A stretch of 64,000 nt of DNA, taken from an uncultured Candidatus Saccharibacteria bacterium. GTDB lineage: Bacteria; Patescibacteriota; Minisyncoccia; Portnoybacterales; UBA2143. The stretch is from NCBI GenBank assembly GCA_964403725.1, contig CAYOHI010000003.1:14374-78373 (forward strand). Direction: 5' to 3'. The translations under genes and the position numbers were made by a program. Numbering within the stretch: the stretch's first letter is position 1; each line of letters opens with the position of its first letter. Positions 53,797 to 56,045 of the stretch are shown piece after piece. The notes under the pieces are model-generated. The model saw only the letters and a list, made by a program, of their open reading frames with translations, had not been told where the DNA came from and did no database searches.

Positions 53797-53955
53797 TTAC
53801 TTCTTCATTTCTTTATGAGGAGTATGTTTTTTGCACCATTTGCAAAACTTCTTCAGTTCTAATTTATCCTGAGTTGTTTTTTTGTTTTTACGAGACCAAT
53901 AATTGATTCTCTTGCATTCAGTGCATTGAAATTTTACTAAAAAATCTTGTGACAT
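53797..53955 (-). CDS. rpmG: 50S ribosomal protein L33 (52 aa, below the ORF-track size cutoff)
   Basis: The minus-strand translation MSQDFLVKFQCTECKRINYWSRKNKKTTQDKLELKKFCKWCKKHTPHKEMKK has the bL33 CxxC...CxxC zinc ribbon and NY..RKN/LELKK blocks. Confidence 0.85.
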   Translation of the reverse strand: MSQDFLVKFQCTECKRINYWSRKNKKTTQDKLELKKFCKWCKKHTPHKEMKK

Positions 53956-53979
53956 ATTTTTATCTTTCTTTTTACCTCC

Positions 53980-54261
53980 TGGAGCCGATGGTGAGAGTCG
54001 AACTCACGACCTACTCCTTCTCTTGCACCTCTATTTATTTAAATACATATTAGAGGAATAGACTGTATCTTAGACATATCTTTTTTAAGACTTAGTCTCC
54101 CTTGTCAGTCGTTCGAGCGCTTCAAATTGATTGGCGCTACGGTCTGAACCTTGTATCAGGCCTTTAACCGTAATTCGGGATTCAATTAGATGTTTCTATC
54201 TAAATGGGCAGAGATCGAGGAGATCTACCATGGAGGTGCTCTACCACTGAGCTACATCGGC
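53980..54261 (-). tRNA. tRNA-Thr (anticodon GGU), interrupted in the anticodon loop by a roughly 207-nt intron, with the 3' CCA encoded
   Basis: Exon 1 (54261 down to 54227) reads GCCGATG-TA-GCTC-AGTGGTA-GAGC-A-CCTCC-ATGGT. Exon 2 (54019 down to 53980) reads AA-GGAGT-AGGTC-GTGAG-TTCGACT-CTCAC-CATCGGC-T-CCA. Joined, they form a complete cloverleaf with a perfect 7-bp acceptor stem. This closely resembles bacterial tRNA-Thr(GGU). Confidence 0.7.
54020..54226 (-). mobile_element. putative group I self-splicing intron in the tRNA-Thr anticodon loop (boundaries ±2 nt)
   Basis: It follows U36 of the tRNA and ends in G. Internal elements resemble group I cores: UACGG...CCGUA (P4-like), GAGACUA...AGUCU (P7 with G-site-like GACUA), UCUUA...UAAGA (P8-like), and CCUCUA...UAGAGG (P9-like). 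Size is comparable to the smallest known tRNA group I introns. Confidence 0.55.
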
Positions 54262-54845
54262 TTATATATTGTTAACATTTCGTTTATTATATCTCTTAAC
54301 TTCTTATTACTATAATAAACAGTTAAAACACCATATTTTGATTTCTTTTTATAACTTCCTAAACCACGAGAAGGCGTCACTATTACTTTTTGGAATTGAT
54401 CTGATTTAACATTCAATCTATTTTTCCAAAATTTCAGCGCTTTATTCGGGTCTGTATCGCTAAAAATCTGTAATCCAAATCTTAATTTGCTAATTTGAAT
54501 ATTGCATATTTTCACAAGAAATTCAATAAATTTATTTATCAAGTCGGGATCACTATTACCAAGTCTAATTGAATCCTTATTTCTTTTTGTACCTTCACCC
54601 CAATAAAGACCCAATCCTAAACCCTTCAATTCTTTCTCTTGTGAAGTTAATCTATTTTTAATCTTAAACGGATCACCTTTTGGATTTCTTTTTATATAAG
54701 TAGCTTCACTTCTTGATCTCCTAGGAATACTGTATCTTCGCATCCAATAAGCAATCTTTGAATGACTTAAACCAGTCTTATCTGATATTTCTTTCATTGA
54801 TAAGCCATTACTATATAAATCTTCTAATTTTTCTTTATTTACCAT
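54252..54845 (-). CDS. free-standing LAGLIDADG-family homing endonuclease-like protein with N-terminal HTH
   Basis: LKGLGLGLYWGEGTK is a LAGLIDADG-type motif (single copy, so homodimer class). N-terminal HTH (LSMKEISDKTGLSHSKIAYWMRRY). The stop codon overlaps the first nucleotides of the intron-containing tRNA-Thr. Confidence 0.6.
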   Translation of the reverse strand: MVNKEKLEDLYSNGLSMKEISDKTGLSHSKIAYWMRRYSIPRRSRSEATYIKRNPKGDPFKIKNRLTSQEKELKGLGLGLYWGEGTKRNKDSIRLGNSDPDLINKFIEFLVKICNIQISKLRFGLQIFSDTDPNKALKFWKNRLNVKSDQFQKVIVTPSRGLGSYKKKSKYGVLTVYYSNKKLRDIINEMLTIYKPM

Positions 54846-55167
54846 CCCTCAATGATTTCTTTTTTGTTTTCTTCTTAATAAAGCTCTTACCTACCATAAC
54901 TGATACTATTACAGAAAGCAAGGTTATGGCTAAGGAATAGAATATCTTATCAGATAAGAGATCTAAATCACCAAATAGTCTGATATATATTTCCTTTAAG
55001 GTGCTGTCCCAAGCTAGAGCTGTGACAATACCTAAAGAAGCAATAATCAGAGTGACTACTCTTCTTCTGAATTCATCTTCAACCTTATCAATCCTATAAT
55101 CCTTAAGGAATTCTTTAATATCCTTAACGCTGATTCTTAAATCTTTAATATTCTTTAAATTTTTCAT
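54835..55167 (-). CDS. small two-TM hypothetical protein
   Basis: The start was set at the ATG at 55165-55167 (MKNLKNIKDL...). The longer ORF-track N-terminus is a translation of tRNA-Tyr. Two hydrophobic helices. Confidence 0.35.
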   Translation of the reverse strand: MKNLKNIKDLRISVKDIKEFLKDYRIDKVEDEFRRRVVTLIIASLGIVTALAWDSTLKEIYIRLFGDLDLLSDKIFYSLAITLLSVIVSVMVGKSFIKKKTKKKSLRDGK

Positions 55168-55259: not shown

Positions 55260-56045
55260 TCAAGAATTCTTATATTCCCAATTACTGATTAAACTAGCAT
55301 ATTTCTCTTCTAATTTCAAATAATCTTCTTTTAAGATTAACAAAAGATCTAAATCAGGATACTTTTTCCTAAATTCCCTATCTCTTCTTTTTGAATAATC
55401 ATTGAGGAAATTTTTAACTTCTACATAGAAATCATATTCTGGTAAATAAAAGTCTGGAGTATAGTTTTGAAAACCTAAGTCAAAAACCTTCGGCTGGTGT
55501 ATCCATTTAATTTTTAAAAAATCACATAATCGCGCTATATTTGCTTCCCATCTGCTATAAAAATATGTACTTTTATCTATGTCATTTCTAATACCAGCTT
55601 TACCTCTTGCTGCTTTTGGAGATGTAGGATTACCTCCAATTGTTTTCATAGCACAATCAACACTACAATATTTCCTATTCATCCAACGCTTCTCTAAAAA
55701 AGATTTCCCGCAATTAACACAAATTATTTCCTCTTTTGGTATTTTTTCAATCCCTTTATACGGATTTTCTCTTCCTTTTAGAGATTTTGATATTTTTAAC
55801 TTCGTTTCTTTTGATCTAGATCCTCTGTTTTTATTACTAACCTTTGCAGCACAACTATGACAACAATAAACCTTAGGATCACTAGGCTTTATTTCAAAAG
55901 AATTACTACAACCCTTTCTTTTACAAATTCTTTTCTCTTTCTTCAAATGAAAATTAAATATGCCTTTCTCCCAATTCTTTTTCATTAAAGAACTCTGTTT
56001 TTCTCTATACTCTTTTGACTTATAAAAGCTATAAGGCATAGTCAA
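55260..56045 (-). CDS. homing-endonuclease-like protein: NUMOD3 motifs, two Cys4-type zinc-finger candidates, and a C-terminal PD-(D/E)xK-like nuclease motif
   Basis: SKETKLKISKSLKGRENPYKG and SKEYREKQSSLMKKNWEKG are NUMOD3-like. CKRKGC...CCHSC and CVNCG...CSVDC are Cys pairs. C-terminal YTPDFYLPEYDFYVEVK fits PD...(D/E)xK. The gene is wedged between two tRNAs with gaps of 7 nt or less. Confidence 0.5.
   Translation of the reverse strand: MTMPYSFYKSKEYREKQSSLMKKNWEKGIFNFHLKKEKRICKRKGCSNSFEIKPSDPKVYCCHSCAAKVSNKNRGSRSKETKLKISKSLKGRENPYKGIEKIPKEEIICVNCGKSFLEKRWMNRKYCSVDCAMKTIGGNPTSPKAARGKAGIRNDIDKSTYFYSRWEANIARLCDFLKIKWIHQPKVFDLGFQNYTPDFYLPEYDFYVEVKNFLNDYSKRRDREFRKKYPDLDLLLILKEDYLKLEEKYASLISNWEYKNS

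Follow-up and report, generated by a model that had tools for sequence, protein, structure and literature searches.

The 64,000-nucleotide (nt) stretch of DNA analyzed here, referred to as the window, comes from a metagenome-assembled genome labelled uncultured Candidatus Saccharibacteria bacterium (assembly GCA_964403725.1, contig CAYOHI010000003.1, positions 14,374 to 78,373) and carries, on its minus strand, a gene for the transfer RNA (tRNA) tRNA-Thr(GGU) that is confirmed to be interrupted by a 207-nt intron. The insert is in all likelihood a compact ribozyme intron of the group I type, situated between positions 36 and 37 of the syntenic tRNA-Thr(GGU) and spliced by the group I pathway. 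Introns of this kind have already been described (Nakagawa et al., 2026; PMC13011429) and are common in Patescibacteria, and the copy in the window is a new member. An original prediction, made from the sequence of the window, had proposed a compact group I-type intron that ends in G and splits the gene after U36, and this proposal is now supported by orthology, about 200 homologues, covariation, and the literature.

The split gene spans a 282-nt pre-tRNA (53980..54261, minus strand, as for all elements of the gene below). It is composed of a 35-nt exon 1 (54227..54261; GCCGAUGUAGCUCAGUGGUAGAGCACCUCCAUGGU), which covers tRNA positions 1-36 and ends with the anticodon G34 G35 U36, the 207-nt intron (54020..54226), which follows U36 and has G as its last base, and a 40-nt exon 2 (53980..54019; AAGGAGUAGGUCGUGAGUUCGACUCUCACCAUCGGCUCCA), which covers positions 37-76, begins with A37 A38, and includes an encoded CCA; the outer coordinates, the end of exon 1 after U36, the 207-nt gap, the CCA, and the A37 A38 start had all been read correctly in the original prediction. 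Intron position i corresponds to window position 54227 - i. When joined, the two exons form a canonical 75-nt cloverleaf tRNA-Thr(GGU).

The gene adjoins that of ribosomal protein L33, whose nearest homologues are found in Patescibacteria, several of them labelled Candidatus Portnoybacteria, and an exact look-up of the L33 protein of the window returned no record. Seven relatives (L001-L007, L005 lacking the upstream region) were compared for synteny, and their gene order is S2, EF-Ts, a protein of ~220 amino acids (aa), tRNA-Thr(UGU), tRNA-Tyr, tRNA-Thr(GGU), rpmG, and tRNA-Trp. The comparison with related tRNA-Thr loci, which had been proposed as a check, finds an intact, uninterrupted orthologue in the same slot in L001-L007. 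In the nearest relative, whose L33 is 92% identical, three tRNA genes lie within 263 nt, and the same cluster in the window additionally contains two endonuclease-like open reading frames (ORFs) and a DUF5654 ORF. The joined exons align with the intact tRNA-Thr(GGU) of the relatives without a gap through the anticodon loop (...CCAUGGUAAGGA...), and this alignment, together with the shared synteny, identifies the window gene as the syntenic orthologue carrying an insertion.

In the window copy an A stands on both sides of the junction, which allows a slide of one base and a reading as either 36/37 or 37/38; since 135/216 family members (among the matches listed) have an intron that does not start with A, the insertion site is fixed at 36/37. 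The pre-tRNA has a fold of -87.5 kcal/mol (z = -4.17), and none of 200 shuffles was as good. In an RNAalifold analysis of 97 homologues, the halves of the anticodon stem in exon 1 and exon 2 covary across the intron (columns 3-7 with 269-273), which speaks for selection on the split gene to yield a functional tRNA. Default ARAGORN called five other tRNA genes in the window and missed the split tRNA-Thr(GGU), which was likewise not detected by Rfam at gathering thresholds.

The intron family was delimited through two scans, one of metagenome contigs with a core pattern (GACTGACAAGGG, a gap, and AAGATACAGTC) and one of species-representative genomes with a pattern taken from another part of the intron (CCCGAATNACGGTNAA, a gap, and AGACCGT), each of which returned at least 120 loci. 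Nearly all of the at least 240 loci obtained over the two scans are the Thr(GGU) intron. With junctions defined solely by the exons, via their anticodon and acceptor stems, at least 216 complete introns were recovered, 201 of them unique, with lengths of 169-269 nt and a median of 193; every one follows U36 of tRNA-Thr(GGU), and none is large enough to be ORF-sized. At the exon-defined junction, a terminal G is present in 214/216 introns (among the matches listed). The records of the second scan are almost all from Patescibacteria and cover many lineages (Saccharibacteria, Kaiser-, Taylor-, Wolfe-, Yanofsky-, and Peregrinibacteria, and others); one member, in the complete Wolfebacteria genome CP011209 (L181), lies in what appears to be one of the three genomes already published with this intron. 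Identity between the window copy and the other retrieved copies does not exceed 72-79% and has a median of 52%. Motifs left unconstrained in a scan are still nearly invariant, with CGAACGACUGACAAGGG in 106/111 loci, CAGUC in 110/111, and CC[CU][GU]AAUNACGGUNAA in 114/117 loci of the scan in which that motif was not imposed.

A tRNA-Thr(GGU) host had been considered unusual in the original prediction, a view that is outdated, as “divergent group I introns” of Patescibacteria, located at 36/37 of tRNA-Thr(GGU), are listed in Table 1 of a recent mSystems study (Nakagawa et al., 2026; PMC13011429), which credits the term to Castelle et al. (2018). In that study, Thr(GGU) introns were present in 3/95 complete Patescibacteria genomes, escaped RF00028, received unreliable ARAGORN calls, and were detected by the tFind model gpI_bact_tRNA (Williams, 2020; bioRxiv 10.1101/2020.01.27.920355). 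The window copy shares with the published introns the host tRNA, insertion site, phylum, size range, escape from RF00028, and mislabelling by ARAGORN as Arg(GCG) 34/35, but it comes from a different metagenome-assembled genome and differs from all retrieved copies to the extent given above. The published study, in contrast to the present one, offers no structure model and no covariation analysis for the Thr type.

A group I secondary structure model was written on the window copy and tested on a MAFFT alignment of 97 sequences, in which 92.3% of the cells at modelled pairs are paired, compared with 75.5% for shuffled controls and 28-45% when the partners are slid. Changes on both sides are found at 35 pairs, and the covariation score of 0.465, as against 0.154, was reached in 0/500 shuffles. 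RNAalifold, without being supplied with the model, finds P1, P2, P4-P9, and the anticodon stem. The topology of P4-P6 and P3-P7-P8 domains with a P3/P7 pseudoknot fits the family, with covariation in P2, P5, P6, P8, and P9, invariance in P4 and P7, and a P3 of 3 base pairs (bp).

P1, which the original prediction had been unable to place, is formed by exon bases G34 G35 U36 and intron nt 1-2 (54225..54229), with the 5′ splice site after U36, and by the internal guide CUGCC at intron 16-20 (54207..54211). The U36.G18 wobble at the splice site and the G35-C19 and G34-C20 pairs occur in 97/97 sequences, intron nt 1 is paired in 96/97 and nt 2 in 91/97 through GU, AU, GC, and UA pairs, and a GCC guide lies 8-21 nt into the intron in 201/201 unique introns (among the matches listed). 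A bulged register of P1 (intron 1-5 with 11-15) was set aside, being paired in only ~45-80% of cells, in favor of the better-fitting continuous register of RNAalifold. The P2 hairpin (intron 21-44; 54183..54206) shows both-side changes in 9/9 pairs and is closed by a GAAA loop, L2, at 31-34, which is a GNRA tetraloop in most members.

The 5′ strand of P3, CCC at 48-50 (54177..54179), pairs with GGG at 126-128 (54099..54101) and makes a pseudoknot with P7. This helix is paired in 100% of the aligned sequences, among which three C-to-U changes retain a wobble pair, and a compensatory CUC/GAG version occurs in one lineage (L258) that was reached independently via the neighboring protein. Extension of P3 by U47-A129 was rejected because position 129 pairs with 155 in P8. 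The segment 54139..54171 contains P4 (56-61 with 83-88), an A-rich J4/5, and P5 (65-69 with 76-80), both helices being predicted by RNAalifold; P5 has four pairs changed on both sides, and P4 is invariant in its ACGGU/ACCGU register, one base away from the UACGG/CCGUA pairing of the original prediction, in which the helix itself had been recognized. Inclusion of U55-A89 in P4 was likewise rejected, as position 89 covaries with 111 in P6. P6 (89-93 with 107-111; 54116..54138) is paired in 95.7% of cells and has changes on both sides at 5/5 pairs.

The two strands of P7 lie in nearly invariant motifs of the family. The 5′ segment (54102..54115), which holds the CGAACGACUGACAAGGG motif, consists of J6/7 UCGAAC with A115 and the bulged C116, the strand GACUG (117-121), and J7/3 ACAA, while the 3′ segment (54060..54071; exact pattern match at 54061-54071) consists of J8/7 AAGAUA (156-161), the strand CAGUC (162-166), and U167. 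P7 is accordingly 117-121 with 162-166, extended by A115-U167 across the bulged C116. The GAGACUA...AGUCU pairing that had been proposed as P7 would need a loop of 1 nt, and the stretch in question covaries as P8. P8 itself (129-155; 54072..54098) shows changes on both sides at its four outer pairs and has a CUAAG/UAUG internal loop resembling a tetraloop receptor. This loop accompanies a GAAA L2 in 75/97 members and occurs in 0/89 cases with GUAA, GCAA, GCGA, GGAA, or GUGA loops (Fisher test of L2 class against P8 motif, 2e-32, a value that overstates independence because the sequences are related), a co-variation that, on sequence evidence, is the apparent signature of a tertiary clamp between P2 and P8.

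The intron's 3′ end is organized around P9.0 and the P9 hairpin (54021..54058), in which P9 (171-176 with 194-199), correctly assigned as CCUCUA/UAGAGG from the start, has both-side changes in 6/6 pairs. The two P9.0 pairs, 169:206 and 170:205, stand beside the terminal G and are paired throughout (100%), one as GC in 53 sequences, AU in 35, UA in 4, and CG in 1, and the other as CG in 47, UA in 41, and UG in 5. The terminal guanosine, omega-G207 (54020), marks the 3′ splice site. P10 would comprise at most 1-2 bp in most members and is not claimed.

Short elements of the core connect the family with the Rfam group I model RF00028. The J6/7-P7 segment of the family, AACGACUGACA, resembles the consensus AAAGACUAAAC, and the J8/7-P7′ segment, AAGAUACAGUCUA, resembles the consensus AAGAUAUAGUCUA; in the J8/7-P7 3′ element, 10/11 positions match the consensus AAGAUAUAGUC. 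P7 has a G-C pair (GACUG/CAGUC) where the consensus has A-U (GACUA/UAGUC), and the A-to-G and U-to-C differences at this end of the helix compensate for each other and thereby support the pairing. A sequence-only nhmmer profile of the Thr family, run against the retrieved loci, did not reach canonical tRNA-Tyr introns, so that kinship with bona fide group I introns is argued from structure and short motifs.

Subgroup IA introns have two additional helices, P7.1 and P7.2, located between P7/P3′ and P8. The Thr intron has no room for them, as ACAA alone separates P7 from P3′ and P8 follows P3′ directly. With respect to subgroup IC3, its R element reads ACGACUGACAAGGG instead of GUAGAGACUA, its P3 has 3 bp, and the window copy has no RF00028 match, while an IC3-like L2-P8 contact is present in the family. 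The Thr intron thus appears to fit neither IA, for want of P7.1/P7.2, nor the R element of IC3, and we assign it to no subgroup. In the published phylogeny, the Thr introns are placed on a long branch inside the IA clade and not in IC (PMC13011429).

The IC3 introns of Azoarcus tRNA-Ile(CAU) and cyanobacterial tRNA-Leu(UAA) resemble the Thr intron in being compact (~200-250 nt) and ORF-less, in interrupting the anticodon loop, in having ~3 exon bp in P1 and a terminal G, and in the aid given to exon alignment by the anticodon stem. A further likeness is the docking of the P2 tetraloop on P8 in the Azoarcus structure. The IC3 introns differ by their good RF00028 scores, their longer P3, and an R element of the GUAGAGACUA type, whereas the Thr intron has its 3-bp P3 and ACGACUGACAAGGG.

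The group I introns at 35/36 of Patescibacteria tRNA-Asn, tRNA-Asp, and tRNA-Tyr occupy anticodon loops in the same phylum, and those of tRNA-Tyr are found within the same clusters of tRNA genes (L210, L078, and others) and have the AUAACGGU and ACCGUGG blocks in common with the Thr family. They differ from the Thr intron in insertion site, in their canonical R and S elements (GUAGAGACUAGA...AAGAUAUAGUCC), and in a 6-bp P3, and for the Asn and Asp introns self-splicing in vitro is proven. The tRNA-Tyr(GUA) introns, which measure ~190 nt and have these canonical R and S elements, were seen in L210 (7162-7436, minus strand) and L078 (766-1036, plus strand), where a paralogue of the neighboring gene described below lies just upstream, and also in L082, L144, L161, L193, L219, and L233; the tRNA-Tyr gene of the window is intact. 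The L210 copy carries CCGUAGAGACUAGAUACC...AAGAUAUAGUCC and scores 47 bits on RF00028, just below the gathering score. At L237 (6140-6428, minus strand), a tRNA-Met(CAU) gene has a canonical group I intron (RF00028, 60.6 bits), with a paralogue of the same neighboring gene ~110 nt away.

We read the mechanism as that of a group I intron whose core is reduced and divergent. The split gene, its orthology, its family membership, the covariation-supported helices, and the conserved U.G, omega-G, and P9.0 are shown by the analysis; we infer guanosine-dependent self-splicing chemistry and the exact guanosine-binding site. The gene would be transcribed as a 282-nt precursor, in which the intron would fold into the P1-P9 architecture, with the P4-P6 and P3-P7-P8 domains forming the core through the P3/P7 pseudoknot. 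The guide CUGCC (16-20) would pair with G34 G35 U36 and the first two intron bases, holding U36 in a U.G wobble, and the GAAA loop of P2 would dock into the receptor-like loop of P8. An exogenous guanosine bound at P7 (G117-C166, beside the bulged C116) would then attack after U36, P9.0 would bring the terminal G207 into the same guanosine site, and the freed 3′-OH of U36 would attack after G207, ligating the exons into mature tRNA-Thr(GGU). The exons would probably be aligned by the anticodon stem rather than by P10; for the Anabaena pre-tRNA intron, exon alignment via the anticodon stem is attributed in PMC13011429 to its reference 29.

Several observations weigh against this assignment. A permissive Rfam search of the window copy (53900-54350) gave no group I match at E ≤ 10, and the best family member tested, L057, matches RF00028 over its full length (E = 0.0015 in a 261-nt search) with only 21.4 bits against a gathering score of 50. 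The absence of a match for the window copy, which the original prediction had named as a refuting outcome, is not decisive, as the Thr family is reported to escape RF00028 (PMC13011429). P3 is only 3 bp long, P4 and P7 never vary and so receive no support from covariation within the family, and P10 is weak, with 0-1 contiguous pairs in 147/201 unique introns (among the matches listed). The covariation counts come from related sequences, so that the events are not independent. The published splicing assays cover only the Asn and Asp introns, which self-splice in vitro (PMC13011429). A nearby intact tRNA-Thr(GGU), which would have pointed to a pseudogene, was looked for with ARAGORN across the 64-kb window, and no second copy is present there.

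Directly 5′ of the tRNA-Thr(GGU) gene, and overlapping its start, lies a free-standing gene, ORF197 (54252..54845, minus strand), which terminates inside the acceptor stem of the tRNA, its stop codon falling within tRNA positions 8-10. Its 197-aa product has an N-terminal helix-turn-helix and a domain in which the LAGLIDADG fold was identified, with the motif GLGLYWGEG, of which G83, E84, and G85 are invariant in 69 sequences. The match to Pfam LAGLIDADG_3 is below threshold (E = 0.079 for the window protein; 3/69 members at E ≤ 0.01), and the more than 2,000 homologues are all unnamed or hypothetical. The upstream survey covered 186 intron-bearing loci (among the matches listed) with at least 650 nt of upstream sequence, of which 66 show an orthologue of near-full length, encoded on the same strand and terminating at most 155 nt upstream of the tRNA, ~10 have adjacent fragments, and 93 have no detectable homologue within the retrieved locus DNA. 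Sampling via the protein, with no recourse to the RNA patterns, gave eight orthologue clusters, each located directly 5′ of a tRNA-Thr(GGU) gene that contains the intron in five clusters and no intron in three (L249, L266, and L278); set against the published 3/95 complete genomes, 5/8 gives a Fisher value of 3e-5, a rough comparison between different samples. More distant paralogues (23-38% identity) are found immediately 5′ of the genes for tRNA-Trp, Tyr, Thr(UGU), Met, and Gln. This free-standing LAGLIDADG-fold family beside tRNA genes is the least expected observation of the analysis.

Some LAGLIDADG proteins are group I maturases. The abutting gene, together with the short P3, the weak P10, and a divergence sufficient to escape RF00028, would suit an intron that is derived from group I but protein-dependent, its reduced core needing a maturase or chaperone, possibly the upstream LAGLIDADG-fold protein itself. 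We consider this improbable, given the 93 surveyed intron-bearing loci without a detectable ORF197 homologue in the retrieved DNA, the presence of ORF197 beside intron-less tRNA-Thr(GGU) in L249, L266, and L278 and of its paralogues beside uninterrupted tRNA genes, and an invariant putative catalytic E84 that fits a nuclease better than a pure maturase.

That the tRNA-Thr(GGU) gene is dead, a pseudogene with a non-splicing insertion whose function is supplied by another copy, is very unlikely. Standard tRNA and Rfam searches make no call and the genome is seen only through the window, but more than 200 diverse genomes have the insert at an identical nucleotide position and show structure-preserving changes in it, the exon halves co-evolve and keep the anticodon stem, and the gene occupies the only syntenic tRNA-Thr(GGU) slot. 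Moreover, a complete intron-carrying genome has two tRNA-Thr genes by tRNAscan-SE as against three in most of the sampled rows of Table S2 (PMC13011429), which implies, as far as those rows go, that this complete genome has no GGU copy other than the split gene. Removal by a protein endonuclease and a ligase, in the archaeal bulge-helix-bulge style at the canonical 37/38 site, could draw on the A/A ambiguity that lets the window junction be read as 37/38, yet 135/216 homologues start with G, U, or C and fix the junction at 36/37, and there would be no explanation for the conserved ribozyme-like core, P9.0, and omega-G. Splicing of that type is not known in bacteria (PMC13011429, introduction), and, judging from the junction and the conserved core, we regard this explanation as scarcely credible. 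Splicing as a group I intron remains the preferred reading.

The distribution of ORF197 fits a family of putative free-standing homing endonucleases that would target tRNA genes, with the intron enriched nearby; the pattern is compatible with co-conversion or “trans homing” (concept: PMC3984707), and the adjacency of gene and intron suggests endonuclease-driven co-mobility. We raise tentatively, as a possibility that we hold to be doubtful, that the ORF-less tRNA-Thr intron spreads by hitch-hiking with this unnoticed LAGLIDADG-fold endonuclease family as it homes to the 5′ flank of Patescibacteria tRNA genes. In this model, tRNA-Thr(GGU) alleles lacking the endonuclease gene would be cut, and repair from the donor would co-convert the intron 50-250 bp downstream, as in trans or collaborative homing. 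If true, it would explain the patchy presence of the intron among close relatives and the family member found in a Niastella populi record, and it would contradict the low mobility inferred for tRNA introns of the phylum, most of which have no internal endonuclease genes (PMC13011429).

The likeness to the trans or collaborative homing system (PMC3984707) lies in an ORF-less intron beside a free-standing endonuclease-like gene, in the patchy occurrence among close relatives, and in a gene that is full-length, fragmentary, or absent, whereas the putative endonuclease here has no known cleavage site and its gene also stands by intron-less tRNA-Thr(GGU), with paralogues by other tRNAs. Strict “collaborative homing,” in which the intron is the immunity of the endonuclease, is weakened by the 3/8 orthologue clusters beside intron-less tRNA-Thr(GGU), as the occurrence of ORF197 there and beside other tRNA genes means that the intron is not needed to protect the host copy. 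Should ORF197 turn out to have endonuclease activity, the clusters would offer a natural system for the movement of ORF-less introns in minimal genomes.

For genome annotation, the split gene is a hazard in Patescibacteria, as default ARAGORN, tRNAscan-type models, and Rfam miss or mislabel it. In its intron-search mode, ARAGORN chose a wrong junction and called Arg(GCG) 34/35 in L059, L078, L108, L210, L237, L277, and L183, and it labelled other split tRNA-Thr(GGU) genes as Pro (L037), Leu (L095), and His (L204). Carrier genomes consequently seem to lack tRNA-Thr(GGU), which distorts inferences on completeness and codon usage. With at least 240 loci, nearly all of them the Thr(GGU) intron, the family is far commoner than the three published cases, and its diversity suffices for a covariation-backed model of a reduced group I core, with a 3-bp P3, invariant P4 and P7, and the L2-P8 clamp, and for a dedicated covariance model.

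Two loci stand apart from the remainder of the scans. L183 (5196-5450, minus strand) is a typical family member in tRNA-Thr(GGU) on a 300-kb contig whose record bears the title Niastella populi CCTCC AB 208238 (an isolate of Bacteroidota in culture), and the split gene is directly followed by a tyrosine integrase-like ORF and an NTPase-like ORF, so that its intron could represent horizontal transfer on an integrative element; if the taxonomic label of the record holds, the host would be a culturable test organism. L186 (1103-1266, plus strand), on a contig labelled uncultured Ruminococcaceae, is a ribozyme-like element related to the family, with variant motifs in its core (CGAGAGACUGACAAAGG...GACAUACAGUCC), that lies outside any recognizable tRNA gene.

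The tRNA cluster has received other insertions as well. Between tRNA-Thr(UGU) and tRNA-Tyr, the window contains a 261-aa ORF (55260-56045, minus strand) with a NUMOD3 motif and a weakly phage endonuclease I-like C-terminus, a probable second homing endonuclease of the free-standing type in this cluster. It does not occur in the nearest relatives, and near-full-length homologues (48-55% identity) are found in L014, L042, L142, L149, and L219, all of which are intron-bearing. An ORF for a DUF5654 family membrane protein (54835-55167, minus strand) lies between tRNA-Tyr and the LAGLIDADG-fold gene, and is likewise missing from the nearest relatives, whose tRNA cluster is compact. In L004 (3410-3757) and L006 (2659-3006), a 115-aa ORF belonging to family PF05635 (“23S rRNA intervening sequence protein”) is situated between tRNA-Tyr and the intact tRNA-Thr(GGU), and constitutes yet another, different insertion into the same tRNA cluster.

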